A DNA stretch of 64,000 nt from Mustelus asterias (taxonomy: Eukaryota): contig NW_027590185.1 in the NCBI RefSeq assembly GCF_964213995.1, positions 372,001-436,000 on the forward strand. Direction: 5' to 3'. Numbering within the stretch: position 1 is the stretch's first letter; each line of letters opens with the position of its first letter. A program made the translations under genes and the position numbers. Shown here in pieces: positions 2,907-31,160 of this stretch. The notes beneath the pieces were generated by a model, which was not told the DNA's origin, did not search any database, and was given only the letters and a program-made list of their open reading frames with translations.

Positions 2907-2946
2907 ATGGGAATCCTTGTTTTCACCCTGTGTGCTTGTTTACCCT
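2907..2946 (+). pseudogene. NARTCR: NAR-TCR cassette 1 leader exon, inactivated
   Basis: MGILVFTLCACLP; the donor reads GATGAGT instead of GTGAGT, and the split codon would be T+GA = stop (C+GA = Arg in cassette 2). Confidence 0.85.
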
Positions 2947-3096
2947 GATGAGTACCGATCAAACTAACCCACATTGTGTGGATTGAATATAAAGCTGCCT
3001 CGTGTCCATCTCAATTACAGACACTGTCTCGGATTTTAGCCCCTATGTTTGGTTCGGCTCTGATGGTCCATTAAACTCTCTGTGTTTAATTTCCAG

Positions 3097-3387
3097 GATC
3101 TTTCAATCAGCCAGTGACACAGAGCCTGGCAGCGTTGACCAGGAAGGAGTGTCAGTCTCTTACCATCACCTGTGTTTTCTGTGAAGTTCATGATTTAGAA
3201 AATGGTCATTTTTTCAGACAAATCCAGACCGGGACGGAGCAGGAGCGGGTCACCAGCGGAGGGAGATTTATTGTATTGGTGAATAAAGCAGAAAAGACAT
3301 TTTCACTGGAAATTCGGGATGTGAGAGTTGAAGACAGTGCCACCTATTACTGTAACGTTCAGCACTGGTACTACTCACATAGGACAC
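3097..3387 (+). pseudogene. NARTCR: NAR-TCR IgNAR-like V exon, cassette 1
   Basis: Acceptor TTTCCAG; VTQS..RKECQSLTITC...FSLEIRDVRVEDSATYYCNVQHWYYSHRT; short Cys-Cys spacing (no CDR2), extra FR1 Cys; leader and heptamer defective. Confidence 0.85.
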
Positions 3388-3415
3388 CGCATTCGGAGAG
3401 AGTTCGACAAAAACC
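3388..3415 (+). promoter_or_regulatory. Degenerate 12-RSS of NAR V1
   Basis: CGCATTC-12 nt-ACAAAAACC; aligns with the CACAGTG-12-ACAAATACT of cassette 2. Confidence 0.7.
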
Positions 3416-3749
3416 TCAGGATAATCAAAACAGTAATTCCCAGCAATTCCCATGTTCGGTAACTTGACTTGTCGGTTTGATGTTATTCCCAGTTCAATCT
3501 AGTTTAATTTCATTTTAATTTCCACCTATCAGTTATAATTCTTCCAGGTTTTTCGCCATTAATAAGAATCTTGCATCTCTGCTCCTGTTCCTGGGACATT
3601 TTACCAGGAACTCAGAGAGTCACAAGGAAAAGTTTGATCCAATGAGGTTTTTTTTAAACAACCAATGTTCATTATGGATTCAAATCCCCTGAATAACCGA
3701 GAAACACTGATTGCTCGGTAATGGCTGCTCGGCAGTTTGAGGTGTCAGT

Positions 3750-3840
3750 CATTCTTGTGCTGGGCTGACTGAGAGCGCTGACACTGTGGGGAGAATGGAG
3801 ATTGCAGATGGGTCTGGGGCGGTGGTGACTGTCACAGCCG
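3750..3840 (+). other. NARTCR: NAR-TCR J segment 1 with upstream 23-RSS
   Basis: CATTCTTGT-23 nt-CACTGTG (3750-3788); coding 3789-3840 RMEIADGSGAVVTVTA (IgNAR-type DGxG FR4); donor GTAGGT at 3841. Confidence 0.85.
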
Positions 3841-4139
3841 GTAGGTGACTCCTAATCCTATTGTGTTGCAGCCTGTTTAGGTTAGTGTTCACCGTCAGTT
3901 TAAATTCGTTATCAGCATCACTTCAATTCTCTGCTTCTAAAGCAGGGTGCTTTCCAGTGGAAGATTTTCAATTGCAGATTTAGACTTGGGAGCAGATTAA
4001 GAAACCGAAGAGTCTCACAACTCGAAGAGTCAGGCTATGAGACCAGATTGAAGCAATGTGAGAACCCGAAGGACAGGTATCCCACAGGGAAGGAGGTTCA
4101 GCTCACTCGATCTGGACTATTATTGGTTTAAGGAACAGT

Positions 4140-4685
4140 AAAAAGTCTCACAACGCTAGATTAAAGGCCAACGGGTTTATTTGGAATCACGAGCTTTCGG
4201 AGCGCTGCTCCTTTCTCAGGTGAGTGGAGAGTTGGGTTCACAACACGGCATATATAGACAGAAACACAATTGCAAGACAATGGTTGGAATGCAAGTCTTT
4301 ACAGGTAATCAAGTCTTTACAGGCGCAGAGAACGCGAGTGGAGAGAAGAATAATCACAGGTTAAAGAGGTGCGAATTGTCTCAAGCCAGGACAGATGGTA
4401 GGACTTTGCAAGCCCAGGGAAAATGATGGAGGTTACATGTATTGTGACATGAACCTAAGATCCCGGCTGAGGCCGTCCTCAAAGATTCGCATTCCAACCA
4501 TTACCTTGGAATTGCGTCTATGTGTATATGTGCCGTGTTTGCAAACCCAACTCTCCACTCACCTGAGGAAGTAGCTGCACTCCGAAAGCTCGTGATTCCA
4601 AATAAGGCTGTTGGACTTTAACCTGGTGTTGTGCGACTTCTTACCGTGCCCACCCCATTCCAACGCCGGCATCTCCAAATCATGG
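4140..4685. mobile_element. Penelope-like element remnant with inverted terminal repeats
   Basis: - strand ORF 3' end (EDGLSRDLRFMSQY) and two opposed copies of the terminal repeat seen at 10500-10661. Confidence 0.75.
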
Positions 4686-4769
4686 TTTAAGGAAGGCATC
4701 GGTTAATCCTCACAACTGCCTGCACTCTCACTCTCCTAACTGGTTTCAGTGAGCGCCCATTAGGGGAGG

Positions 4770-5090
4770 CCGTGACCAAGAGGAATTATCACTGGACAAT
4801 GAATTCAAAAACACAGCTAAAGTTCTGGGAACCCGCCAGGGCAGATGGTGGAATTTCAATTCAATAAACATATCTGGAATTATGAATCTACTGATGACCA
4901 TGAAACCATTGACGATTGTCAGAAACCCCCATCTGGTTCACTAATGTCCTTCAGGGAAGGAAATCTGCCGTCTTTACCTGTCTGGCCTACATGTGACTGT
5001 AGAGTCACACCAATGTGTCTGACTCTCAACTGCCTCTGGGTCACTGGCGACGGGCAGCGTCGACACCCAGTTCTCATCAATGAATAAGAA
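4770..5090 (+). mobile_element. Degraded tRNA-derived SINE (unassigned family)
   Basis: Homologous to 11740-12125, 5925-6165 (-) and 28745-28835. Confidence 0.5.
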
Positions 5091-6234
5091 GCAACTTGTG
5101 GACACACCGAACCCTGCTCCCCGCTCCCCGCTGGGAGGAAGCGGAGCCACTGAGCACAGGATTTCTCTCTGCTCCAGGAAATGTCAATGAGCTACCGGGA
5201 GAAGCAATCCAAAATTGCAGCGGCAGATCCAATACCTGCAGTGACAGGAAAACAGGAACATGACACAAATAGCTTCAAGAGCTAATTTTATAGTTGTAGG
5301 TGACATTTCATGCGCAATCAGTGACTAAAAATAATTACATCCTATCTGATTTTTATTTCCTTCCTCTTAACAATTATTTTGGCAGAATTCCAAAACGTTA
5401 GAATTGCATTCTCTTCCACATCTTGATCGCTGATGGTGGACAATTCTGTTTGCATTATGTTTTTTGTCGATTTCAAAAACATGCGATTGTGCTCACTGAA
5501 GCACAATGAATCCCTCAAGAATTGGGTTGTGTCGCGGCTGAGGGTGCTGAACCGTTCCAAAGATTTTATTTTTGAGTACTAATGGAATCAATGGATTTGG
5601 AAATAGGACGCACAGTTAGCATTAAGGTAGATGAACAGATCAGAACATTCCTGAATTGTACAGTGGGTCCCCAAGGTGGATTGGTCTACCATGTTTCTAA
5701 ATTTTATGTATCTTATTATCTGCATGAATTTCTTACACTCAGAGAATATAAATAATCAATCATGTGTATGGATATCGAAAGTTTGCAAAAGCTTTGACTT
5801 TCGGCTCTCGAAGGCCGGTAAGACATGAAAAACGGCATTGAAACACCGAACATTATGTTGTAGTTTCAAGGAGTTCCATGTGCAGAAACTGGTCCTTCGG
5901 TGGGAGAGCTGTTTCTTTCTTTAAATCATTCGTGTGACATGGCGTCGCTGGTTGGCCATCATTTATTGTGCATTCCTGGTCGCCCTTCAAATCAATGGCT
6001 GGCTAGGCCATTTTTAAGGGCAGTTGAGAGTCAATCACATTTCTGTGGCACTTTCTAAACATCCGAAATGGTTTCACGGTCAGCAGCAGATACTTAACTT
6101 CAGATTTTTAAAATTGAAGTCAAATTCCACCAACTGCCGAGGCAGGATTCGAACCAGGGCCCCAAAAGAACTGGATATTTATATATGAAATATGAAATGT
6201 CTATCAGAAGAGATAGACATGTTTAGAATATGTT

Positions 6235-6410
6235 TAAATCACGGGTAGATAGTTTTCTGATCGATAAGGGAATTAGGGGATATGGGGAGCAGGCGGGTAA
6301 GTGGAACTGATTCGCTTCAGATCAGCCATGATCTTGTTGAATGGCTGGGCAGGCTCGAAGGGCCAGATGGCCTACTCCTGCTCCTATTTCTTATGTTCTT
6401 ATGTTCTTAT
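6235..6410 (+). mobile_element. CR1 LINE 3' end
   Basis: 3'UTR motif and (TTCTTATG)n tail. Confidence 0.7.
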
Positions 6411-7489
6411 GATAGAAACATTCGGGTATATTTACACGGAGACACATCAGAATGTGAAACTCGCTCTTTGGAGAAACGGCGTGATGAATTTATGGCACAG
6501 CTTGGGAGAGAGGAATAAAAAGACACACAGCTCAGGATGTAAATGGTTATTTCGGGTTCGAGAGGTGAACGGGCGTCCGAGGACAATCTTCGACCAGCTG
6601 GACTGAGTGGCCTATTCGTGTTAAGTGGAAAGTGTAGAATGTTAAACTCAGAGACTATTGTGTTCGGAAAGAACAGGGAACAATCAGCCAATGGACTAAA
6701 AGGATTGAAATTCTCACATACCCTGAAGGCAGTTCCCAGTGAGTAACAGTAAAACCACTGCGGAAACTGAACAGACTGAACCAACCGACAACTGAGAGAA
6801 ATTAGGGCAAGTTTTCATGACGGTTAGAAACCGCCATGAACAGACAGAAAACAACTCAGATGTAGAAATAAAATGAAATCAACTTGCAAATATTTCTAAT
6901 GGAAGTAAAACGGTAGAATTGATGGACGGAAACAGACAAAGAGCCCAACGGCAGACAGGAGTTACCTTGTAGTGTTGAACTGCGGCCAAAGGTCGATTTT
7001 TGACCCACAGGTATACATTGTCATTTCGGATTATTAGGTGCGGACGAAAATCTCTATTCTGTGCTGAACCTTGAGATTTACAGGTTCACAAGACTGCCCG
7101 ATTTTCTTTCGGGCAATCAAATCTAGAGAGCAATTAATTCACTGAAAAGAAGAGTGAACTTTACGATTTAGTTTTCTGGTTCGCACTTCACCAATATATT
7201 TATTAGAAGATATTTAATAAAAATAGAATCATACTCCGCAAAAAAAAACACAATTCTGTCAGTAATTTGAAGGTTCTGCCAATGTACCTATTCGCTCTTC
7301 TTTGGTCCCCACTGGAATCCTGTCCTGTCCCAGAAGTTTCTCCCGCTCAATTACCGTTTGAAAGTTAATGCTAAGTCTGCTCCCAGCATCAGCCCTTCCG
7401 CATGCCATTCAGGTGACTGCAATTCTCTGTGCAAAAAGGTCTGAAGATCTGCCACGCTTGTTTATTTCCAATTCAAATTCACAGAATCC

Positions 7490-7787
7490 CAACAGGGCAG
7501 AAAGAGGTCATTCGGCCTATCGAGTCTGCACCGACCACGTCCCACCCAGTCCCAGGCTCTATTCCCATAACCCCACATATTTGCCTTTCTAATCTCCCTC
7601 TGGCACGAGGGTCAATGTCGATCAACGTAATCTGCACATTTTTGGACTGGGGGAGGAAGCCAGAGCACCCGGAGGAAACCCAAACGGTCACGGGGAGAAC
7701 AGGCAAACAGTGACCCGAGCGTGAAATTGAACCTGGGTCCCTGGCGCTGTGAGGCAACATTGGTAACTGTGTCACTGCGCCGCCCCC
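7490..7787 (-). mobile_element. HE1-like V-SINE, degraded
   Basis: Core TGGGTTTCCTCCGGGTGCTCTGGCTTCCTCCCCCAGTCCAAAAATGTGC on the - strand; tRNA-like head. Confidence 0.75.
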
Positions 7788-7894
7788 AAATTCAATTAAA
7801 CAAATTGCTGCAACAGCCAGGTATTAACCCGATTGACAAGTTTCCAGGATAAACGGCGACGAAACAAACAATTCATTTTATTTCTACACTGCAG

Positions 7895-8200
7895 ATTCCA
7901 GCTCACCTGTGTCACCAAGTTCCCTTCTACAAACATCTGCTGCCGGCGACACGGTTATGTTAAGCTATGAATATTCAGGTCTCTGTCAGGACACAGTACA
8001 CTGGTACCGTCAGACCCGAGGACAGACTCCGAAGTGCCTGCTTCAGACACACACTTCAGGAGACGAGAATAAAGCAAACGCTGTCGCGGGGAGAATTTCT
8101 GCTTCTATCGAATCTTCAGTCAAAATCAGCCGGTTAAAGATCTCCAAACTTCAACTGAGCGACTCCGCTGTTTATTACTGTGAAATGAGTTGGCGCACAG
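7895..8200 (+). pseudogene. Leaderless supporting TCR-delta V, cassette 1
   Basis: Acceptor CTGCAG, phase 1; first canonical Cys replaced by Tyr (LSYEYSGLCQ), CDR1 Cys kept, WYRQ, DSAVYYC; RSS CATAGTG-23-ACAAAAACC at 8201-8239. Confidence 0.85.
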
Positions 8201-8249
8201 CATAGTGTCACAGAACACGGAGACAGCTGTACAAAAACCTGAACATGGT

Positions 8250-10361
8250 TCAGAGGAATTCATCAGGCGAATGAGGCTGCGGGAGTTCTTCCACAAACCC
8301 CAAGAGGCCAACAGCGAACACAATGAGACAGCTAATGAACCGGAACAGCAGACAGAGAGACCCGCAGTGCAACCGAAGAGGAAAGAGTCGAATTGGACTC
8401 CTCCGGAAGGCCGCTGCCCTCGACTTGACATGTATGCCCAAGCCATCAGGAGGTGCGTCAACACCAAATTCATCAGCCGAACTCACAAGACAGCACCGAA
8501 CATCACCCAAGCACAACGCAACGCCATCCACGCTCTCAAGACCAACCGCAACATTGTCATCAAACCAGCAGACAAAGGAGGGGCCATCGTCATACTGAAC
8601 AGAACGGATTACTGCAAAGAAGTGCACCGACAACTAAACAACGAGGAACACTACGGAGAGTTACCCACAGATCCGACCAAAGAACACACCCGTCAACTCA
8701 ACACTCTGATCAAAACCTTTGATCCGGACCTTCAGAGCACCCTCCGTGCTCTCATCCCACGTACTCCACGCGTTGGAGATCTCTACTGCCTCCCAAAAAT
8801 ACACAAGGCAAACACACCCGGCCGTCCCATCGTTTCAGGAAACGGAACCCTGTGCGAGAACCTCTCCGGCTATGTCGAGGGCATCTTGAAACCCATTGTA
8901 CAAAGAACCCCCAGCTTTTGTCGCGACACTACGGACTTCCTACAGAAACTCAACACACGTGGAGCAGTTGAACCAGGAGCACTCCTCGTCACAATGGATG
9001 TCTCGGCACTCCACACCAGCATCCCCCACGATGATGGCATTGCTGCAACGGCCTCAGTACTCAATGCCGTCAACTGCCAGTTTCCAGATGCAATTTTACA
9101 ACTCATCCGCTTCATCCTGGATCACAATATCTTCACCTTCAACAGCCAGTTCTTCATCCAGACACACGGAACAGCCATGGGGACAAAATTCGCACCTCAA
9201 TATGCCAACATCTTCATGCACAGGTTCGAACAAGACTTCTTCACCGCACAGGACCTTCAACCGATGCTCTACACTAGATACATCGATGACATTTTCTTCC
9301 TTTGGAGCCATGGTGAGCAATCACTGAAACAACTCTATGATGACATCAACAAGTTCCATCCCACCATCAGACTCACCATGGACTACTCTCCGGAATCGGT
9401 TGCATTCTTGGACACACGCATCTCCATTAAGGACGGTCACCTCAGCACCTCACTGTACCGCAAGCCCACGGATAACCTCATGATGCTCCACTTCTCCAGC
9501 TTCCACCCTAAACACGTAAAAGAAGCCATCCCCTACGGACAAGCCCTCCGTATACACAGGATCTGCTCGGATGAGGAGGATCGCAACAGACACCTCCAGA
9601 CGCTGAAAGATGCCCTCATAAGAACAGGATATGGCGCTCGACTCATCGATCAACAGTTCCGACGCGCCACAGCGAAAAACCGCACCGACCTCCTCAGAAG
9701 ACAAACACGGGACACGGTGGACAGAGTACCCTTCCTCGTCCAGTACTTCCCCGGAGCGGAGAAGCTACGGCAACTCCTCCGGAGCCTTCAACATGTCATT
9801 GATGAAGACGAACATCTCGCCAAGGCCATCCCCACACCCCCACTTCTTGCCTTCAAACAACCACGCAACCTCAAACAGACCATTGTCCGCAGCAAACTAC
9901 CCAGCCTTCAGGAGAACAGTGACCACGACACCATACAACCCTGCCACAGCAACCTCTGCAAGACGTGCCGGATCATCAACATGGATGCCATCATCTCATG
10001 TGAGAACACCATCTACCAGGTACACGGTACCTACTCGTACAACTCGGCCAACGTTGTCTACCTGATACGCTGCAAGAAAGGATGTCCCAAGGCATGGTAC
10101 ATTGGGGAAACCATGCAGACGCTACGACAACGGATGAATGAACACCGCTCGACAATCACCAGGCAAGACTGTTCTCTTCCTGTGGGGGAGCACTTCAGCA
10201 GTCACGGGCATTCAGCCTTGGATCTTCAGGTAAGCGTTCTCCAAGGCGGCCTTCACGACACACGACAGCGCAGAGTCACTGAGCAGAAACTGATAGCCAA
10301 GTTCCGCACACATGAGGACGGTCTAAACCGGGATGTTGGATTTATGTCACATTATCAGTAA
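8250..10361 (+). CDS. Penelope RT + GIY-YIG endonuclease (N-terminally truncated)
   Basis: KPADKG, GTAMG, RYIDD, NVVYLIRC..C..WYIGET..LRQRMNEH; about 700 open codons. Confidence 0.9.
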   Translation, partial: SEEFIRRMRLREFFHKPQEANSEHNETANEPEQQTERPAVQPKRKESNWTPPEGRCPRLDMYAQAIRRCVNTKFISRTHKTAPNITQAQRNAIHALKTNRNIVIKPADKGGAIVILNRTDYCKEVHRQLNNEEHYGELPTDPTKEHTRQLNTLIKTFDPDLQSTLRALIPRTPRVGDLYCLPKIHKANTPGRPIVSGNGTLCENLSGYVEGILKPIVQRTPSFCRDTTDFLQKLNTRGAVEPGALLVTMDVSALHTSIPHDDGIAATASVLNAVNCQFPDAILQLIRFILDHNIFTFNSQFFIQTHGTAMGTKFAPQYANIFMHRFEQDFFTAQDLQPMLYTRYIDDIFFLWSHGEQSLKQLYDDINKFHPTIRLTMDYSPESVAFLDTRISIKDGHLSTSLYRKPTDNLMMLHFSSFHPKHVKEAIPYGQALRIHRICSDEEDRNRHLQTLKDALIRTGYGARLIDQQFRRATAKNRTDLLRRQTRDTVDRVPFLVQYFPGAEKLRQLLRSLQHVIDEDEHLAKAIPTPPLLAFKQPRNLKQTIVRSKLPSLQENSDHDTIQPCHSNLCKTCRIINMDAIISCENTIYQVHGTYSYNSANVVYLIRCKKGCPKAWYIGETMQTLRQRMNEHRSTITRQDCSLPVGEHFSSHGHSALDLQVSVLQGGLHDTRQRRVTEQKLIAKFRTHEDGLNRDVGFMSHYQ

Positions 10362-10661
10362 CCCCCACAGCTTGCCTCCTGGACTTGCACAATTTCACAA
10401 GCTGTACTGTCTGGAGACAATACACATCTCTTTAACCTGTGTTGAATGCTCCCTCCACCCACATTGTCTGTACATTTAAGACCTGGCTGGCTGTAGAGAT
10501 TTGCATTCTAATCAGTATTCTGTAATTTGATTTCTGTGTCTGTGCCCTGTTTGAGAACAGAGACCACTCCATCTGACGAAGGAGCATTGCTCCGAAAGCT
10601 TATGGTATTTGCTACCAAATAAACCTGTTGGACTTTAACCTGGTGTTGTGAGACTTCTTAC
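8250..10661 (+). mobile_element. Penelope-like retroelement, 5'-truncated, inserted in the RSS array
   Basis: Uninterrupted ORF to 10361 plus 3' terminal repeat; removing it restores the array linker TGAACATGGT|GATGATTACAGA. Confidence 0.92.
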
Positions 10662-10971
10662 GATGATTACAGACACAGTGATTTGGTAGACGGAAAAAGC
10701 TTTACAAAAACCTGAACATGGTGATGATTACAGACAGAGTGATTTGGTACACGGAAACAGCTTTCCAGAAACCTGAACATGGTGAGAATTACAGACATTG
10801 TGATGAAGAACACGGAGAGAACTGTACAAAGGCCTGAATATGGTGAAGTTTACAGGCACAGTGATTTCGAACACGGAAACAGCTAGACGGAGACCTGAAC
10901 ATTGTGAGGATTACAGACATAGTGATACAGAACACGGAGAGCTGAACAAAAGCCTGAAGATGAATTACAGA
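10662..10971 (+). repeat. Tandem 61-bp 23-RSS array behind supporting V1 (5 units here plus the unit at 8201)
   Basis: Heptamers at 10674 CACAGTG, 10735 CAGAGTG, 10796 CATTGTG, 10857 CACAGTG, 10918 CATAGTG; spacers 23,23,23,23,21; nonamers ACAAAAACC, CCAGAAACC, ACAAAGGCC, ACGGAGACC, ACAAAAGCC. Confidence 0.92.
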
Positions 10972-10972
10972 T

Positions 10973-11278
10973 TCTTGTAGTCCTCACCATGTCCATGTTT
11001 TTGCACAACTCTCTCCTTGTTCTGTATCACTGTGTCTGAAATCCTCACCATGTTCAGGTTTCTGTCCAGCTCTCTCCGTGTTCTGTCTCACTGTGTCTGT
11101 AAGCCTCACCATGTTCAAGTTTCTGTACGGCTCTCTCCGTCTTCTGCATCACTGTGTATGTAAGCCTCACCATGTTCAAGTTTCTGTACAGCTCTCTCCG
11201 TGTTCTGTCTCACTGTGTCTGTAAGCCTCACCATGTTCAAGTTTCTGTACGGCTCTCTCCCTGTTCTGCATCACTGTG
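10973..11278 (-). repeat. Tandem 61-bp 23-RSS array behind supporting V2 (5 units)
   Basis: CACTGTG at 11272, 11211, 11150, 11089, 11028; all spacers 23; nonamers ACAGAAACT x3, ACAGAAACC, GCAAAAACA. Confidence 0.95.
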
Positions 11279-11584
11279 CTGTGTGCCGACTCAGTGCACA
11301 GTAATACACAGCGGAGTCGCTCAGTTGCAGCTTGGAGATCATTAACCAACTGATTTTTTCGACTGGGTCGACAAAAGCAGAAATTCTCGCCCCGGCAGCG
11401 TTTTCTTTGCTCTCCTCGCCTGATGTGTGTCTCATAAGCAGGTATTTTGGGGTTTGTCCTGGAGACTGACGGTACCAGTACAGTGTGTGTTGACAACGTC
11501 CCTGATATTCGCAGTTTAAAGTAATGGTGTCGCCAGCAGCACACGTTTGGAGAGACGAATTCTGTGCCACAGATGAACTGGATT
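11279..11584 (-). CDS. Leaderless supporting TCR-delta V, cassette 2 (apparently intact)
   Basis: Acceptor TTCTGCAG phase 1; ESSSSVAQ...TLNCEYQGRCQHTLYWYRQ...DSAVYYCALSRHT; CDR1 Cys; RSS CACAGTG-23-ACAGAAACT; no leader seen upstream. Confidence 0.9.
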
Positions 11585-11739
11585 CTGCAGAACCAATAAA
11601 ATAATGCACAATATTTCTATGATGCCATTACCTGCGTTGCATGTTAGTTTGCCCGGGGAAACATAATCGCGTCAATAGCTGACCATTTTGCCGCAATTGT
11701 TTCATTGAAGGGTGTTCGACATGTATTAACTATAATTGA

Positions 11740-12125
11740 GGAGACGGTGCCATAGTGGTATTGTCACTGGATTAGTTAATCCAGAGATTTAGTAATCCAC
11801 GGAATGCCCTGGGGACACGGGTACGAACGGTACCACGGCCGATGGTGAAATTTGAATTTCAATTCAATCTTGAATTAATTCCAAAAAAAATGTTGAAGCA
11901 ATGTCTAATGATGACCATGGAACCATTGCCACTTATCGTTAAAACCACATCTGTTTCTCGAAGGTCCTTTTGGGAAGAAAATCTGCCATTCGTATCTGGT
12001 CTGGCCGCCATGTGACTCCAGGTCCACAACAATATGGTTGCCTCTTAAATGCCCTCTAAATGGGCTTCACAAGCCACCCAGTTCAAAGGCAATTAGGAAC
12101 ACCCACATCCCGAGAATGAATTGAA
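11740..12125 (+). mobile_element. tRNA-derived SINE (unassigned family)
   Basis: A/B-box-like head (GGTGCCATAGTGG...GGGTACGAAC); homologous to 4770-5090. Confidence 0.55.
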
Positions 12126-13681
12126 CAAATGGCAAAAGAGCGAGGGGCAAATATTTAGATGATTTTTATTTTATCACACAGCGAATTTTGCTCAATTGGA
12201 TCCTTTGGAGATGTGATTTTGGGAACATATTCAGCACTCATTTTAAAACCGCCAATGGAAGAAATATACAGAATCAGATTAGAATTCCGGTGGTTTTGAA
12301 GAGTAGGAAGGTAACAGAGGTAAAGTTCAGTAGCACCTGCAAATAATCGCCACTTGGTCAGAATGATGTCCTTTTCCGGTTTCTCATTTTATGTTTTATA
12401 TTTAGTGTCTGCTTCTGTGTATATTGGCGATTTACAAACCTGAGGAAATTACATGAAAGTTCACTTTTCTCACTATAACAATTGCTGTCCAGAGTTGATT
12501 GACTGAGAGTAACCCTACCTTTTTATATCCTGGGTCACATCAAGATTCAAGCGAAGATGGTCATACTCGCCCAGCGAAACTAATTATGCGAAAATGATAT
12601 TGCATATCTGTGTCAAAGATCAACCTTTGACTACCGTTTAACTCTTTGCACAGTTTCGTCCATCGATTCTACAATTTATATTATATATTAGAATGATTTT
12701 CAGTTAATACCAGTGGATTTCTAAATCTGAGTTGTTCTCTTTGTGCTGCTTGCGATTTCTTGCCACCATGAGAACCTGTCCCATACACTCTCCAATATCA
12801 GTTGAGATCAGCATGCTCAGTTTCCCCGATTGACTTGCTCACTGTTACTCACTGTGAAAATTGCCTTTTCAAGGTGCTTGAGATTTTCAATTCATTCCAT
12901 CCATTGGTTGATTGTTCCCCATGCTTTCTGGGCAGAATCCCCTAAAAAGAGGTCTTTACCTAAAAAGAGGTCTGGGCAGAATCCTCTCTGTATTTTATAT
13001 TATATAGACTCTACAGAACAGAAGTAGGCCAGTCGGCTCACAGTACGCTTGTCCTTGCACTGCACACGTACCTACGCCCCTGTCACACTCGATCCCTAAC
13101 GAAACCTTTGTACACTGAGCACTGTGTCCTTCTCCCTCCTCGATTTTTCACGCCGTCAGAAAAATTCCTTACGCCATTTACTGCAACCACTCCATCTGGT
13201 AGCGCCCTCCACATGCCTCCTAATTTCTTTTTCTTTTATCTCACTGGCATCATATTAAATGTTTCTTTAATCTGAATCGTTTTCTCCACACGTACATTAA
13301 TGAACCTATAAATTAATGCTAAAGATTTATATCAACAACAAAAACTGAAAAATGTTGGCAAACCTCAACAGGTCTGACAGCATCTGTGGAGACAGAATAG
13401 AGTCAACGTTTCCAGTCGGGATGACCCTTCGTAAGAGCCACAGAGGGAATCAAAGTTGACACTAGGACAGAAGTCATAGCTTCAAAATGTGGACCCGACT
13501 CCAGTTTCCTATTATGCTCCCAAATCTAAAACTGCAATTGAAAATCTTCCACAGAAACCCCCCTTCCCCCACGCTGCTATTGTAGTCACAGCGGATTGAA
13601 GAGAGGCAGACTACAAGAATGAACTGACGGCGAAAACGAACCAGGACATTCTGCAACACGGGGGGATTTGGAGTCACTTAC

Positions 13682-13773
13682 CAGCTGAGACAGTCACCAC
13701 CGTCCCAGACCCATCTGTAAATCTCCACTCTCCCCACAGTGTCAGCACTCTCAGTCAGCCCAGTACAAGAATG
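13682..13773 (-). CDS. NARTCR: NAR-TCR J segment 2 with 23-RSS
   Basis: RSS 13735-13773 (CACAGTG-23-ACAAGAATG); coding 13734-13682 EWRFTDGSGTVVTVSA; donor GTAAGT. Confidence 0.9.
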
Positions 13774-14104
13774 ACTTACACGTCAAACTGATGGGGAAAA
13801 AATTACCGAATAGTCAGCGTTTATCAATTATTCAGGGGTTATAGATCAGCAATGAAGTATGATAGTTTTATAATTCCCATTGGAACAAACTGTTCCTTGG
13901 GACACTCTGAACTCTTGGCAAAACGGCCCAGGAACGGAGCGGAGATGGACGCTTCGTAGAAATGGAATAAAAAAGTTAAAGAAAGATAACTGAACGGAGG
14001 AAATTACAACGAAATTAAACCATGTTGCAACGATAATAACCACAACCCGACAAGCTGTGGTCCGTGTCCTGGAAATTATTGCTTCGCTTGTTCAGAAATA
14101 CTTA

Positions 14105-14132
14105 AGTATTTGTTCTCCTCTCTTCCACTGTG
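14105..14132 (-). promoter_or_regulatory. 12-RSS of NAR V2
   Basis: CACAGTG-GAAGAGAGGAGA (12 nt)-ACAAATACT, facing the J 23-RSS. Confidence 0.85.
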
Positions 14133-14423
14133 GTGTCCCATGTGTGTAGTACCAATGCTGAGCTTTACAGTAATAGGTGGCAGTGTCTTCAATTCTCATG
14201 TCCCGAATTTCCAGCGAAAATGTCTTTTCTGCTTCATTCACCGACACAACAAACCTCCCTCCGCTGGAGATCCGCTCCCGCTCTGTCCCAGTTTGGGTTT
14301 GTCTGAAGAAATGGCCATTTTCTAAATCGTAAACACCATTGAAAACACAGGTGATGGTGAGAGACTGACACTCCTTCCTGGTCACCGCTGCCGGGCTTTG
14401 AGTCACTGACTGACTGAAACATC
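14133..14423 (-). CDS. NARTCR: NAR-TCR IgNAR-like V exon, cassette 2 (apparently intact)
   Basis: QSVTQSPAAVTRKECQSLTITC...RISSGGRFVVSVNEAEKTFSLEIRDMRIEDTATYYCKAQHWYYTHGT; 59 residues between the canonical Cys (VNAR-like), extra FR1 Cys. Confidence 0.9.
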
Positions 14424-14571
14424 CTGGAAATTAAACACAGAGAGTTTAATGGAGCATCAGAGCCGAACCGCACAACGGGGCTAAAACCCCAGACAGTGTT
14501 TGTAATTGAAATGGACTGGGGCAGCTTTATGTTCAATCCACACAATGTGAGTTAGTTTGATCGGTACTCAC

Positions 14572-14614
14572 GGGGTAAATAGGCACACACGGTGAAAACA
14601 AGGAGGATTCCCAT
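14572..14614 (-). CDS. NARTCR: NAR-TCR cassette 2 leader exon
   Basis: MGILLVFTVCAYLP+C, donor GTGAGT; in frame with the V exon; TATAAA at 14638-14643 and GC box at 14738-14748 upstream. Confidence 0.9.
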
Positions 14615-14899
14615 CGCTCTGCTGCCTGGAACTGAGGTTTATATGACGGGGAGCTGAGACTGCAGAGCTGGACTGCTCTTGGAGACTGGACCTCAGAGCT
14701 GAATTGAAATACTTCAGACCCGAACACTGGTAAGATAGGCCACGCCCATCCTTCAAATTAAGTTCAAGGATTTAAATGGTGAATGCAGCTGTGAACTTTC
14801 AGTCAAAACTACCCGGCAGCCAGAACACAGAGACTCATCCCGCTACCCACAGCAGTGTCTGCCATGCTCTACTTGCTCTCGAGTAGATTATTTATTGTT

Positions 14900-16435: not shown

Positions 16436-16765
16436 TACCATTCACAGATGCTGCCAGACCGGCTGAGTTTATGCAGAAGATTCTGTTTCCAAATGCTGAT
16501 TGAAAGGTTAGTTAAAGTAAATTTTATCTCAACTGTTAAGAAATTGCATGAATATTTGAAGGCAATAGATTTTCAGCGCTATGCGGAAAGAACAGACTGC
16601 GGGATAAAATAGTAACTCCATCGTCTGTCAATGCGGGCAATATGTACTGAATATTCTCGTTATTTTTTGTAACATTCAATGATTCAATGTCGAGGAGAAT
16701 GAATGAATTTTGACTGAGGTTCCCCATATCTAAACATGTATTTATTTTCTGGTTACCATTTGAAG

Positions 16766-17109
16766 GACTGTGTTATTCTGATACTGTGAAGCAAACTGCA
16801 CCGTCACTATTATGTTTGGAGCAAGAACCTATTCATTGCCCTATTCATTCTCCATAGCCAGTCGCCGCTATGATCTGCTCTAGTACCGACAAAAACCGAG
16901 GGAAGAGCCGGTATTTTTAATCAAAAGGAATTCGGAGGGAGAAACAGAGAAAGTTGAGCGTGTGGGAGGCCGATTTTCTTCAACGCTCTGAGTATTGGAT
17001 CGTTTCTTCAGTTTAACCTTGACAGACATACAGCTGAGTGACATTGGGGTGTATTATTGTGCGCTGATCATTCGCAGTGATACAAACTAACAAACTAACT
17101 ACGGAAACT
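16766..17109 (+). pseudogene. TCR alpha/delta V pseudogene
   Basis: DTVKQ...(Trp to TAG)YRQKP...QLSDIGVYYCAL; frameshift and two stops; RSS CGCAGTG-21-ACGGAAACT (17073-17109). Confidence 0.8.
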
Positions 17110-17930
17110 ATCACTGGAATGCCATATCAGCCGAATGATGGAAGCTCAGTTTGTGAAATCTGAACCTTCACCTCTGGCAGCTGCAGAATCAGACCGAGAC
17201 CGTTTATTGCTGTGTGAATGTAGTCGAAAATAGAGTTAATCGATGTGAAAAGACATTCTGAATGATTGAGCTCCTGACAAAATAGGGCGAGGGAAAGGCA
17301 AGGAAAAATAAACAGGAAGATAGAACGGCAGCGAAAAAAGGGAGTAAAAGGCCGTGAGACACAAAGAGGTAGCGCGCGGGATGCCAGAGAGTTAAAGAAA
17401 GACTCTCTGAGAGTTAGGATCAGAAAAATAGAAAATAAGAAAGTAAGAAGAATATATAGAAGTGGGAGAGAGAGAAATAGAGAGATAATAAGAGAGAGCG
17501 AGACAGGGCCTTAGACAAAGACAGAGAGGCAAAAATGCAGTCTAATATCATCTTATTCGATTTCTGATGTGTGATTATATTTTATCAGTGGCTCCACTAA
17601 ATATAATCACACATCAGTGGAATAAGATCAGTGGCCCCAGGAAATAAATCACAGACCTCAGTAAAGACAGTTAACTTACTGGTTTGAGTGGACTCACTGA
17701 ATGACTGACCACGAGGAAATATTTAATCCTGTCTGTGAAAGAACATCAGCTCACCCAGGACCCGCATTTGAATCTGATTTAAATATCTGGCGGGTATCTT
17801 GTGGATTGCGTCATTGCCGGCAAATGATTGCAGGAGGAAGAGATTTTGACCAAATCAATCCTGTGTGGGTTTTTAAACTGCTCCGGGTTTGACATTGTAA
17901 AGGGAGAGAGGATCGGGCTCGGCAGCGGCC

Positions 17931-18414
17931 GTGCAGATATTCAGAGTCTGGATTGTGTTTGGGATAATTTTTGACGGTGAGGACGATTTCAACAGTGTTC
18001 CATTCAAATTAAAGTTTTACTTTTTTGTTAATGCCCATCTTGTCTTGTTCCTGAACACATTACAAATCAGAGTGATGGAGATTCAATTCCTCAGTCCATC
18101 GCATCAGTGAGCGTGAAAGAAGCTGAAGCCGTGACTATAAAATGTATCTATAGCACTACAGAAGAAAGGTATTATGTATATTGGTACTTGCAGCAAGCAA
18201 CGAAAGAGCCCCAGTTTGTTGTGTGGAGATGGTCTTGTGATGTTGTGGAATGGAAAGGCTCGGCGTTAGGAAATCGTTTTGCATCAGACCTCTAGCTGTC
18301 AGACTCCACCACAAGATTAACCATCATGGACCTGCAACCGACTAACGCCGCCGTTTATTACTGCGCCCTGGGACTCACAGTAATAGAAAACAGTACCTAC
18401 GCTGTACAAAAACT
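17931..18414 (+). pseudogene. TCR alpha/delta V pseudogene with leader
   Basis: Leader 17931-17976 starts GTG, donor GTGAGG; acceptor AG lost; V 18066-18375 (VTIKC, YWYLQQ, AAVYYCAL) with TAG at 18293; RSS CACAGTA-23-ACAAAAACT. Confidence 0.85.
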
Positions 18415-18542
18415 GTCTTCCGATTGAAACTGCGATTCCTGCCTGGTGAGATTGTCTAAAATCTCGGAAAGGTGCAGTCACAACGAGGCTGTCAGCCACT
18501 CAAACACATAGAGGGGAATTCAATTACCCTCTGTTAATTGAT

Positions 18543-19465: not shown

Positions 19466-20626
19466 CAGCAGATCGGGTAGATAATCCCAAAAACTCTTTG
19501 TCGCTTACATCGCGCCTGTCGATGCCGGTCACATTCAGAAGCTAACTGTTTTCCATTGCACTACATTGCTTTATGATATACTGTAACATTTCCATGATTG
19601 CTGTTCTCCATCTTTTACTCAGTTCTCACCGCTTTACAACGCCCCCTCTCTAACTCCCACACAGGGAGCACAATAACAGCTGAAAATCTCGAGTTTAATG
19701 CTGCCATCTTCACGATTTCTTAACAAGCATTTGTCAGAACAAAATGCTCTTGTTTGCAAACAGCCAGATAAATTTCTGTTGAAATCATATATTTCATCAG
19801 AATTTTTTCCTGATTGGTATAATTGACATCCTGTGGCTTTCATTGTCCTTTGCTCAAAGAATAGCAACGAGGTCATTGAAAACGCTCTTGTGTAAAAGGT
19901 GGATGACGAGAAGGTGGAGGATGAAGCTTGAGCAGGTTAATGAGACAAATGACCTTAAAGCTGTTTGGAATCCAGTCAAATGTTGCACGCTAGGAATTAG
20001 GTACAGAAACCCCAATTTGGTTATTTGAAAAGTTAGCGCCCCAGGGCCGGGCCTAAGGCCCAGTCAGGCAATTGGCCTTGTTTGGGCGAATGTTGAGTGG
20101 GAAACCGAAAATGATGTGTGCAGGCCCGCAAGTTGCAATATTTATTATTGCTGCCAACCATGACGGACAGAGAAGGACGGCCGAGTCCCTCCAGTCTGCC
20201 CACAATAAAAATGACATAAATCTGAAGTGCAGTCACTATTGCAATGGAGGAAAGAGTCGCTATGAACAGAGCAAGATCCCTCGTCACGTGGTCATCTGTT
20301 GCAGATTGTCGACTGGCGTTTGAATGTCTTGGAAAATTGCCCTGCTTTAGAGGCTAGTGCGGTGAAATGTTTAGGATCCTCCAGAAAGGCCAGACGGAGC
20401 CTCTATTTAGTAGTTTATCTGAGCAATTCACTGCGGAGACGCTCGGACTCCATTACCACTGGCAGTGGAAGTGGCAGCTAGAATGTGCGCTCAGGTCTCT
20501 GAAGGGACACCTGAATCCACAGTTTCATGAATAAGAGGCGATTGAATTGAGAAATGTAACAGTTAACACGGAACTGCAGATAGAACTTGAACTGGCGACA
20601 CCACCTGTGCCAGTTCTGTTTGATGA

Positions 20627-21101
20627 GGTTTTTGTACAGCGATAGATGACCTCTGTGTCTCTCAACACGCAGAAATAGACAGCGATATCTTGGATTTCTG
20701 CTCGAGTAATAGTTAAAGAAAAAATATTTTCTGCATTCGTCTGACTGGCCTCGAATTTTCCCTTGGCAAAACCTGCGTCTCTTCTGTTGCTTCAATCTCG
20801 GTACAAAATAAAATGCGGAGCCTGGTCCGTGTGCTCTCTGTAAAGAAAGGGATTTCTGTGACTTGTCGTGTAGCTGCAGTCCATTTTCATTCTGTCTCCT
20901 TCAGTAATAGACAATTCAATCTGAGGTTGCGCCACAGAATCTGCTTGAATCAACCCTGAATAAAATATAAGGAAAGTTTAATGCAACACTGATTGCTGAG
21001 TCCATTAACATCACAATACTGCCAGCAGATAAGAAGTTATTGTTTTACATACCGAACACCAGCCACAATATAACCAGATGACAAAACCAGAAGAGCCCCA
21101 T
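20627..21101 (-). pseudogene. TCR alpha/delta V pseudogene with leader
   Basis: Leader 21101-21053 MGLFWFCHLVILWLVF, donor GTATGT; V 20955-20658 DSVAQ..MDCSY..DIAVYFCVLR, Trp deleted, internal TGA; RSS CACAGAG-15-ACAAAAACC. Confidence 0.85.
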
Positions 21102-22408
21102 TATTTCTTGGCCAGTGATCTCCTTGAATCGTATGTTTGGAGATATAGATATATTTACTATTGCAATCCTTTAAATTAAGCGACTGTTGTACAGAAAGCT
21201 AAAACAGAAGGAGAGGAAGAGTCCCGGGAAATTGTTTACCAATATAAAGTCGCAATGTGATAACTGGGTAGCAGCATGTTAACAAGAGTGCTGACTGGTC
21301 AGATACCATCTCTCTAGTTCCTGTTCCACCATCTGATCGCGTCACTGCTCTGGGCGGCACTTGTGTTTGGAATTCAGCCCCGCCCCTTCCCTCCTCACGC
21401 TACTTGTTCAGAAAAGAATACATTTGGCCATGTAATCTGTCATTGAACTTTATTATAGATGCAAAGAAATGAAAATGGTGAATGAGAGAAACTGGCAGAG
21501 CGGCAACAGTCCTGAAATAGAGGAAAAATGCAGAGCAAACAAGACACAAATGAAAAAGGAAAGGATGAGTTATGCAAACGGAGGAATAAATTATGTGCTG
21601 ATATTCATAAGGTGCCATATATTTTTGTGTTGTTCTATCTCTTCGCGAGTTATCGGCGATTATAGCAAGGCCACTATTTATTGTCCATCGCGAACTTCAC
21701 ATAAATACGTTGTGCTCTCATCCTGAGTACCACGCCAGTGTGACTGTTGAAGGTGCTTCCACGATGTTATTCTGGAGGCACTTCTAAGATTTTGAACGAG
21801 AGACAAAAACAGGAACGGTTGTTTATGCCGGAGTTAGGATTGGATATGATTTATTGAATCACTGGATAAAACGACACAGAAGGAAAGCATTCGGCTAAGT
21901 TGTTTGTACTTCTAATCTGCAAGAGCTATTCCTTCAGATCAGATACATATTATTTGTCCTCTACTTTGGTCTTTTTCCAACGTGCTGTTGCTTCTATTTA
22001 TCACTGCATATGCCTCCACCAGTCTTTCAGGCAGTGTTTTGAAGATCATAAGGCGTGCTTTGAACATAATCATAAATTTCTCCAGCATTTCTATTTACCG
22101 ATGATCTTTAATCAGTATCTTCTCATTGTCATCCCTGCTGCCCATGTAAATAATTCCTCGTCATATATTAGTTAAAACCCTTTCATTAATTTTGACACTT
22201 CATTTTAAATTCACGTGAACCTTCTCTTTTCCAAAGGAACAATTCAGTTTCTCTATTCACTAAGCGGAAGTGATGCCTACAATCCTCGACAACAATTTGT
22301 CAGAACAAAACTGTTAGTTTTTTAAATCATCATATAAACGAGGGATTTTATTTTTCGTGGTTGGAAGATGCCTTTGTTGAACTCCCCGGTTTCGTTGTGT
22401 TTTAACGA

Positions 22409-22739
22409 GGTTTTTGCATGGGTCGCAGCCGGTTTGAAGCACCATGATACTCAATCCACAGAAATAGAAGACGCTGTCTTTAGTCTCCATTTGCAAAACT
22501 TGACAAAGAGAAAACCTGATATTGAATGAAATATCGAGCATCGAATTTTCCTTTGGAAAACACGGTGTTCTTGCGCCTGGTGTTATCCCGATACAATATA
22601 AACTGGAGCGGCTGGTTCGGGTACAGCCCGTGCTAGTAGCAATCCGGATCAACGGAACTGGAGTTCAATTGCACATCAGCTCCCTCAGGTACCTTTAACT
22701 TAGGTTGACATTGTGTAACCGAATTCCATTGTATTTTAC
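22409..22739 (-). pseudogene. TCR alpha/delta V pseudogene
   Basis: Acceptor TTTTGCAG; NSVTQ..PEGADVQL..QPLQFILYRD..DSVFYFCGL with stop and frameshift; RSS CATGGTG-22-GCAAAAACC. Confidence 0.75.
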
Positions 22740-23399
22740 CTGCAAAATAACATTTAAAACATTAGAAAACCGCTTTGTTGATTACGAGCGTATCTCTCCC
22801 TCTTCGAAAATAAGGACAATCAATCGCAATCTAACTATTACAGGAGGCATTTGGATTATGTACCCGAGAGAAAGGAGTACATCTCAATATTTGGATAGTA
22901 TAGGGGACAGACTGACAATTCACATCAATGAAGGCTTCACATATTCCTTTATACCCATTAAAAAGGAGATGAGGGAAAGTTGAATAGATGTCATTTCTAC
23001 AGTGCTGCCAATATATTCCAGAATCTAACGTGCAATTCTTTTTGACCACGTGCCCACAGTGAGTTTAGTTTCCTTGAGACACGATCATTCCGTTGATGCT
23101 CCGAAACGCTTTTCAGAACAAACAGCAGAAATGCCTCCGTGAAAGATAGAAACAAAAAACACACATGAGCGCTGGTCCGTTTCGATCGAAAGTATCACGC
23201 ATGTGCGTGCTGAGGGGATGGTCTAGTGTAGTGTTAGTTGACACAGAAAGCAGAGTAATATAAACAGACAAATAATCCAGTGTTTTATAAATAAATGCAA
23301 GGTACCTTGCTGCATTAATGAATGCAAACCTTGTGTAATATAAACATAATCAGTGTCCAATACATTTTAACAGGAACGTATTCTAGTAAAGCACTAAAT

Positions 23400-29090: not shown

Positions 29091-30988
29091 TGCTAACTCG
29101 AATGTTAGGAACTGGACGCTTTTGAGTATGAAGTACACATTTTACCCGCTACACAGCACAAACAATGCCGAGCGCCAAGCTCAACGGAGGTGATTTGTTT
29201 TCAGCATACCAACAGTAATACCAACCTTGACAACTCATCATAATATGTCACGTCAAACAATATAAGTTCGCTATCAATGCTAAAATAATATTTCTGCTTC
29301 GACATTTGTTTTTAATGACGTTTTCTCCGTCTTGTTACTGGCTGCGGTTGTGAGCCTGCAATTCATGTCCCTATCAGAGTCCATGTCCCTCAATACAAGA
29401 AGGCAACCGTTACTTTCAACGTGATGCCTCAACGTATCTGGAATGTCAAAATTTAAAAGCGTTCATCCCGCAAATGTCTAAGGGAACAGTGATTTCTGCT
29501 GTAAATCATAGAATCATCGAATATGCTCAGTCATTAATGCATCATTCTCATCTTCCGTCGAACAATTTCAAACAGTATTTGTTCTTCATTCAACATTTAA
29601 AATCTATACATTTAATTAACATATATGTCCTCATTCCGAATTGAATATCTCTGAAATGTACAAAAATGGAATGCAAACATGACTGACCAACAAAAGAAAT
29701 CGAGCCACCGGGTCATACACATACCAATCAAGAAATGTCTTTCTATTTGTCTCATTCAGTGAATTCATAATGATCAGAGAGTATGAGGATGCCGCAGTAA
29801 ATATGAAACGGATAAGTGAAGTCAGCAACACTCATTTCAGGTCATTTGTGATCTCTGCTGATGCATTGGTTGGAAATGAACATTCTTCACCTGATATAAG
29901 GAGAGATGGACTTAGGCGCATAGGATTCACAGAATAATAGGGAGTGAAATGGACAGAAACACAATGACAATGACAAGTCAGTGAAAGAGTTAGGGGGAGA
30001 TACAGTGAGAGAAGCAGATAGAAAAAGGAGAAGCAATGATTGAGATGGCAGAAGAAATTCAAGGAAGGCATAAAATCAACAGTATAAAGTACAATCTGAT
30101 ATGGGAAAGATTTATCTTGAAATATCATTTAAATTGAACTCTGATTGTGGAGCATAAGACCACAGGTTCATTTAAATAAATTTAAATTTGGGGCACAGAT
30201 CAAGGAAGTTGACGAATGTAGCAGAGTCCAAAAAAATATCGTGGTCTCCTAACAAGTAAGGCAAATTATAAGGATGGGTGCAGTTTTCTGAATTGGCGAC
30301 TTATGATGAGAATTATGAGAGTCCCCATTCCCCCAGTGCCATGCGTCTTATTGATTGATTAGGTGCAGTGGTCAGGAATACGTAATGAATGGGCTCCCTC
30401 TGTTGGCGGTGACTGTTAAATTGCCTTATTTCTGGAGATTCACTGTATTCATTATATTCTCAAATTATGTGAATGCCAAATGTTCCCTGATTTGTATTAT
30501 TGTTATTGTGATGTAAACTATAGGTTGTAGGACTAGTGTGAAACTGAATGCGAGTTGTTTTCTGCACAAATAGCTTTGAAATTTGCTGTTGAGTGCAATG
30601 ACGTTGGGTTCAACGCCTGCAATGTTCTGCGAACATTCCCCAATTTAAAAGTAATTCTTTAATTCAAACCGTGGTCGCAAACAATGGGTATATTCCCATT
30701 ACCATGACATTAATTGTATCGTAGCTCGATGCATTTCCATTCTCTGGTTTCCAGCCCACCACCGACTTGTAGAGCAAGAGCACAAAAGTGGCCTGATTGT
30801 CTTTTGGAAGAATGAGTCGAGTATGGTTCTGTGCTGGATCTGCCTGCCAGGTTGGATTTTGGGTGGTGGTTTCATCTGAGGTTAACTTGGTTTCCTCTGT
30901 GTGTGTGTTTGAGAGGCTGACAGCTCAGATAACATCTGGCCATTAAGCAATCCTCAATCGTCACGGGATCGTTCCTCCAGTGTAAGCA

Positions 30989-31160
30989 GGCTTTTGCACG
31001 AAGGTGGGCCTTCTTTCTATCATTGTGCGTCTGAACACGCAGTAATAAGCGGCAGCATCAGTCAGGCTCAGGTCTAATATATTTAAACTGATGAATTTCT
31101 TCGAGGCCTGGAGATCTACATAAAACCGACTTTTAGAAACATCTGCTTTATATTCATAAC
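30989..31160 (-). pseudogene. 3' half of a TCR alpha/delta V, truncated by an ERV LTR
   Basis: YEYKADVSKSRF...LSLTDAAAYYCVFR (31160-31028); RSS CACAATG-23-GCAAAAGCC; the LTR abuts at 31161. Confidence 0.85.

Follow-up and report, generated by a model that had tools for sequence, protein, structure and literature searches.

A NAR-TCR cassette of Mustelus asterias with a D-type 12-RSS on its V segment and no free D, likely derived from one ancestral germ-cell V-D join

In this study, we describe a NAR-TCR cassette in the Mustelus asterias genome whose V segment ends in a D-type 12-RSS and which has no free D, an arrangement that likely goes back to a single join of V to D in an ancestral germ cell. 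We have little doubt that the V-D fusion in this NAR-TCR family is real and inherited, and the fused family is predicted from its sequence to be probably still in use. The cassette lies in a 64-kb stretch of DNA, referred to here as the window.

Results

A V segment with a 12-RSS facing J. The window holds two cassettes of the same kind, A and B (Table 1). The V exon of cassette B, which is on the minus strand, carries an extra Cys in its a-b loop and has Phe in place of the Trp of WYRK. After YYC it continues for 34 nt (KAQHWYYTHGT plus 1 nt, 14166-14133) and then meets its 12-RSS, which is the sole perfect-heptamer 12-RSS with at most two nonamer mismatches in the 64-kb window; a signal of this quality occurred at a mean of 0.007 per window over 300 shuffled windows. 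RSS signals were compared by mismatch counts throughout. The original prediction, that a V with a 12-RSS faces the 23-RSS of a J about 330 bp away, was borne out for copy B, where the nonamers of the two signals are 331 bp apart. Its second part, that neither a D nor a heptamer pair lies between V and J, also held, as no hidden D was found in the spacer of either cassette and even the best RSS-like site starting with CAC had 8 mismatches out of 16.

Cassette A shows the same 34-nt extension as copy B (NVQHWYYSHRT, 3354-3387). The expectation that both NAR V copies carry a 12-RSS after 11 codons therefore stands for copy B only, since in copy A the signal has decayed and its CAC is lost; its heptamer being dead and its leader disrupted by a stop and a broken donor, copy A is a pseudogene and not a working cassette. 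The two cassettes face each other (2907-14614) and have been duplicated as one block, each of the 12 B copies having an A copy 8 to 11 kb off on the opposite strand.

Several other elements were seen in the window. Behind the supporting Vs, two facing arrays of 61-bp repeats, every unit of which is a 23-RSS, occupy 10665-11282, and such arrays are present behind unjoined cassettes too. Between both supporting Vs lies a 725-codon open frame with YIDD and YIGET motifs (8184-10361), putatively a Penelope-like retroelement. Five conventional TCR-like V segments (16760-17110, 18050-18420, 20600-21000, 22400-22800, and 30980-31400) each contain stops or frameshifts in the frame read.

Table 1. Positions of the features of cassettes A and B in the window
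Feature	Positions	Strand	Remarks
TATA-like site near cassette B leader	14636..14645		
Leader exon, cassette B	14572..14614	-	43 nt, ATG, GT donor
NAR-type V exon to YYC, cassette B	14167..14423	-	257 nt, open; YYC at 14175-14167
Germline V 3' end KAQHWYYT, cassette B	14143..14166	-	22-24 nt match unjoined V ends
Junction and inferred D remnant, cassette B	14133..14142	-	10 nt; 3' 8 nt like the 3' half of free Ds
12-RSS CACAGTG-12-ACAAATACT, cassette B	14105..14132	-	Inherited from D 3' side
V-D to J spacer, cassette B	13774..14104	.	Homologous to D-J spacer of unjoined cassettes
23-RSS of J, cassette B	13735..13773	-	Perfect heptamer, 3 nonamer mismatches
NAR-TCR J segment GEWRFTDGSGTVVTVSA, cassette B	13682..13734	-	GT donor
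Leaderless supporting V, cassette B	11279..11584	-	Open, AG acceptor, extra CDR1 Cys (CEYQGRCQH)
Supporting V 23-RSS (11240-11278) and four further 61-bp RSS repeats, cassette B	10982..11282	-	
Cassette A, whole	2907..3840	+	Same fusion, pseudogene
Leader, cassette A	2907..2946	+	Stop, broken donor
V-D, cassette A	3097..3387	+	
Dead 12-RSS CGCATTC-12-ACAAAAACC, cassette A	3388..3415	+	Decayed, CAC gone
23-RSS of J, cassette A	3750..3788	+	
J segment, cassette A	3789..3840	+	
Supporting V, cassette A	7895..8239	+	First canonical Cys changed to Tyr; heptamer CATAGTG

The cassette belongs to the NAR-TCR family. NAR-TCR was reportedly described by Criscitiello in 2006 as a doubly rearranging TCR-delta of cartilaginous fishes. 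The best PDB matches of the window V are VNAR domains (E 8e-19), and its closest named protein is from Mustelus asterias itself (98%). Published accounts, cited here and below for the parts of their text that were accessible, likewise present NAR-TCR as the doubly rearranging TCR-delta of cartilaginous fishes (PMC1845163, PMC5931798, PMC6795676, PMC12227049), with a V that has an a-b loop Cys and lacks the WYRK Trp and a supporting V with a CDR1 Cys (PMC1845163). The window cassette has the same succession of leader, NAR-type V, J, and leaderless supporting V: its N-terminal V is related to the IgNAR V and has an open leader exon, the a-b loop Cys is present (TRKECQS) and the Trp is absent (HFFRQ), and the supporting V-delta downstream has the CDR1 Cys. 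It departs from NAR-TCR as known, which has a free D and two joins, in having a 12-RSS on its V, no D, and one join, while the separate V, D, and J expected of the NAR domain are found in 15 paralogs in the same genome; it also differs in having no C-delta nearby. The three Ds of IgNAR and its constant exons after J are absent here, J being followed by the supporting V, and two IgNAR-like loci with three Ds (L065 and L066) are 45 to 47% identical.

A protein search of the assembly gave at least 88 V matches (best 150 of 839 candidates), from which 70 places were fetched, the remainder being mostly second halves of broken copies and weak matches, and an NAR-TCR V 3' end was found in 64 of the 70. 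Forty of these ends are fused (alleles or duplicated contigs may be among them, as the 12 B copies amount to 9 distinct sequences), 22 carry a 22-RSS, one is a fresh V-D join (L042), and one a hybrid joint (L048). A DNA search with the fused spacer led to at least 40 places (best 40 of 46 candidates), which are the same 40 fused cassettes. In the 22-RSS class the signal lies 22 to 24 nt after YYC, and 15 of the 22 cassettes have an intact 12-D-12 and a J, the others being joined from D to J (three), joined from D to the supporting V (one), or interrupted by insertions (three). J follows at about 810 to 850 nt in the unjoined cassettes versus about 430 nt in the fused copies. Because 22 of 64 paralogs keep the 22-RSS, we take V22-12D12-23J to be the normal cassette, and the possibility that all NAR-TCR V segments share the 12-RSS layout, which would have counted against the original prediction, is answered in the negative.

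V, D, and spacer sequences on the two sides of the join. The first 22 to 24 nt after YYC match the ends of unjoined Vs (KADYWYY, KAQYWYW, and KAQHWYG), and HWYY is therefore encoded by V, not contributed by D as had been supposed. The share of junction and D in the extension is limited to the last 10 to 12 nt, which resemble the 3' half of free NAR-TCR Ds. Compared with four distinct 3' signals of free Ds, the 12-RSS is identical at 19 to 22 of 28 nt and, like them, has T as the sixth base of its nonamer. Of the two spacers in unjoined cassettes, it is the D-J one with which the fused spacer can be aligned, at 67% identity over 408 nt in the case of L043, J side included; no such alignment is obtained with the V-D spacer. 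As in a VD-J gene, the V 3' signal and the D 5' signal are gone, and the D 3' signal and the D-J spacer are kept.

One clade with an inherited junction. In an unrooted tree of the D-J spacer, from which three fused and three unjoined copies with insertions and five rearranged singletons were left out, a branch with 100/100 support separates all 37 fused rows with J in range from 16 others, among which is L042. Spacer distances are 0.19 to 0.34 between fused lineages, versus 0.46 to 0.60 from fused to unjoined copies.

The same junction is bridged by contigs in 6 of the 8 sequencing runs examined (of 21 listed), under organism labels A to F and from five studies, the assembly itself possibly deriving from one of these. 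Contigs of organisms B and C differ from the window at 8 of 489 and 11 of 388 letters (97 to 98% identical). A greater distance separates the window from the contigs of organisms D, E, and F, which may represent other fused lineages. No listed piece of runs X5 and X9 bridges the junction with 31 letters on each side. Run X1 behaves as DNA, since it covers introns and spacer. Because contigs from six organism labels bridge the junction, we regard the fusion as inherited; like that of a VD-J gene it is not somatic, being common to 40 diverged copies and bridged in these runs. The central claim of the original prediction, a fusion of V and D in the germline before the duplication, is thus upheld by the homology of spacer and 12-RSS, by the single clade, and by the bridging contigs. 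As a separate observation, a contig of organism D in run X9 skips 450 bases from V to J (window 13708-14159) at depth 6, possibly reflecting a fully joined V-D-J cassette of some family.

Integrity and possible use of the fused family. Fourteen of the 40 fused copies, namely 8 of the 12 B-type copies and L013-L018, are intact in having an open leader, V, and J, splice sites, CAC heptamers, and an open supporting V. B and L013 are identical at 230 of 257 positions of the V exon, 49 of 53 of J, and 219 of 320 of the spacer (spacer distance 0.31), and their V exons give a dN of 0.072 and a dS of 0.254 (dN/dS of about 0.28 to 0.3; Fisher P = 0.001), while L013 and the dead copy A give 0.149/0.113, a ratio of about 1.3. 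These substitution ratios indicate purifying selection on the V exon of the fused family. A tree of the V exons has a star-like shape and fails to recover the fused copies as a single clade, so that gene conversion from unjoined Vs could inflate this signal.

A hard-wired CDR3 had been envisaged, but the 34 nt of V-D and 19 nt of J add up to 53 nt, which is out of frame; trimming or addition is therefore needed, and the CDR3 is narrowed and not fixed. Nor would this be a one-step receptor, as the supporting V keeps its own 23-RSS and must rearrange. The HGT extension occurs in only two of 70 protein matches, P0007 and P0002, and is not in protein models of other sharks and rays, which as models cannot show RSS layout. 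In the NCBI model P0007, HGTPQ is joined to FTDGSG without use of the RSS, which we read as a gene-prediction splice and not as evidence of expression.

It is unlikely, in our judgment, that the fusion is real but belongs to a family since fallen silent, a relic severed from C-delta that was amplified as a passenger of segmental duplications, yet a number of observations would fit such a history. Twenty-six of the 40 fused copies are broken, all 16 A-type copies being dead, and the B copies were duplicated as a block with one of these. No somatic V-J joint of the fused family was seen: 12 of 12 B-type Js keep their spacer, and a search with J and the downstream intron (best 40 of 60 candidates) returned no V-J-joined copy, all matches of at least 96% being B copies already known. 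A delta-like C exon (one C type, on fragmented contigs) was absent within 200 kb of all 18 fused cassettes checked and was not found on the window's contig, while one is present 16 to 58 kb downstream in 15 of the 24 cassettes that are unfused or freshly joined. Against silence, neither of the B and L013 lineages, with a spacer distance of 0.31 between them, has lost its leader, reading frame, heptamers, J frame, or supporting V, and their dN/dS is about 0.28. Moreover, shark TCR alpha/delta Vs are scattered across a large complex, according to the accessible text of PMC12227049. With no delta-like C near the fused cassettes, their supporting V would therefore rearrange over a long distance.

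Discussion

Our results lead us to propose a single join between V and D in a germ cell of an ancestor, for which RAG was probably responsible. Everything from the V signal through the V-D spacer and the D 5' signal to the end of the 5' half of D would have been lost in this event, while the 3' signal of D would have stayed in place together with the D-J spacer and J. Duplication would then have carried the fused cassette to about 40 places in the assembly. During T-cell development, intact copies would need only one 12/23 join to J to complete the NAR domain, with the frame restored by trimming or N addition, and rearrangement of the leaderless supporting V would take place independently, toward a D/J-C-delta lying far away. 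Splicing would then yield a three-domain TCR-delta chain with one variable junction in its tip loop in place of two, a loop predicted to be short and of reduced diversity.

Ordinary deletion, without RAG, could also have taken out the V-D spacer and left the first bases of the V heptamer, with a product that works alike. Two to four junction bases, CA or CACA, are unaccounted for and placed exactly where the V heptamer would start, whereas Lee et al. found the RSS to be wholly lost in germline joints (PMC2193156), and TGGG occurs both in the spacer of the V signal and in Ds, where it may have served as microhomology. We nevertheless think such a deletion rather improbable, as the ends of the missing stretch of about 400 nt each lie no more than some 10 nt from one of the two RAG cut sites, as a new V-D join in another subfamily (L042), carrying one P-type base, has led to the same product, and as germline RAG joining is documented in sharks in the accessible part of PMC2193156.

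A further alternative concerns how the V would be used. It might rely on a cryptic signal with a 22- to 24-nt spacer that shares the nonamer, joining a 12-RSS elsewhere and skipping both the D remnant and J; weak sites of this sort (CACATGG-24, CACAGAG-24, and CACAGGA-22) are flagged in most fused copies. Their heptamer, however, varies freely among lineages, whereas that of the true 12-RSS is kept in all intact copies, and the sole facing partner has a 23-RSS, which makes cryptic use very improbable. Still less credible is a primitive, D-less cassette of a light-chain-like V12-J23 form from which the D-containing form would be derived. The spacer tree, being unrooted, would allow it, but the copies that serve as IgNAR outgroup show a 22-RSS along with free Ds, the 12-RSS has a D-type nonamer, the 10 to 12 extra nt resemble a D half, and an unjoined V of a bamboo shark (P0006) ends in YWYYT followed by the translated heptamer. 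Somatic rearrangement in lymphocytes or an error of assembly, for which one might invoke several single-copy RAG-type joints in this assembly that may be germline or somatic, is refuted for the fused family by a junction shared by 40 diverged copies and bridged in independent contigs from five further organism labels.

The joints just mentioned are of several kinds. L021, L049, and L055 are single-copy RAG-type D-J joints with no unjoined twin among the copies read, while such a twin is present for L042, for L026, in which D is joined to an inverted supporting V, and for L048, which combines a hybrid joint with a signal joint. At L091:3650-3720, a supporting V is joined to a D with a 23-RSS. 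The assembly also contains at least 19 copies, some of which may be alleles, of a TCR-delta-like C exon, 81 to 100% identical (C119:572692, C96, C436, C181, C90, C71 [three], C110, C3311, C154, C106, C850, C401, C111, C115, C123, C138, and C173; L091-L093), and in one case read, J segments with a 12-RSS lie between an NAR-TCR cassette and the delta-like C. NAR-TCR cassettes together with these C copies look like TCR-delta miniclusters, which are possibly more surprising than the V-D fusion itself; shark TCR-delta is described as a translocon in the accessible parts of two accounts (PMC6795676, PMC12227049).

The mechanism of germline V-D joining is well precedented. Partly germline-joined IgH clusters of the VD-J and VD-DJ kinds are known from sharks (PMC4279169, PMC5192425), and they share with the fused cassettes, as do the NS4 light chains (PMC2193156), an inherited join in the same animal group. 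A partial join that leaves the outer signal usable is common to the partly joined shark Ig genes and the window cassette. As far as the accessible parts of these sources tell, the window family differs from the shark genes in being a TCR cassette and in being old, multi-copy, and present in several species. The opossum VH3-1 comes close; this VH-DH bears a 12-RSS and is reported to take part in rearrangement (PMC12269197), and MODOVH3-1 and GRAGVH3-1 also have V and D fused, carry the 12-RSS of D, and are common to several species. By the same partial text, however, VH3-1 is a single mammalian IgH gene, in contrast to a family of some 40 TCR cassettes, every one of which has a J to itself. Another three-domain TCR with a germline-joined part is marsupial TCR-mu, with its V-mu-j (PMC7615758); there, in the text accessible, it is the inner, supporting domain that is fully joined, probably by retrotransposition, whereas the window cassette has a partial join in its outer, antigen-binding domain, retains the leader intron, and would leave the supporting V to rearrange.

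A 2023 paper, in its accessible part, names marsupial TCR-mu as the only TCR with a germline-joined V. No report of a germline-joined NAR-TCR was found in the literature searched, where the primary NAR-TCR papers were beyond reach and a prior mention is possible. The V-D shortcut, known from antibody genes, thus seems to be undescribed for T-cell receptors of sharks.

A pre-fused V-D would leave a T cell with one cut-and-join fewer to perform, and an early-life advantage of pre-joined receptors has been proposed for shark B cells in the accessible text of PMC4279169. More tentatively, and as a speculation that we rate as possible rather than probable, the old V-D fusion with its dozens of cassettes may constitute a second conserved class of NAR-TCR, situated outside the C-delta miniclusters, endowed with a short, semi-invariant loop, and preferred by early-life or innate-like gamma-delta T cells. 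If this were true, the newly made joints of this assembly would be evidence of continuing germ-cell editing of the TCR-delta locus by RAG. An NAR-TCR V-D fusion under selection in several species would extend germline RAG editing from antibody genes to TCR genes, and the fused family offers a marker for asking whether pre-joined receptors bring an early-life advantage in T cells.
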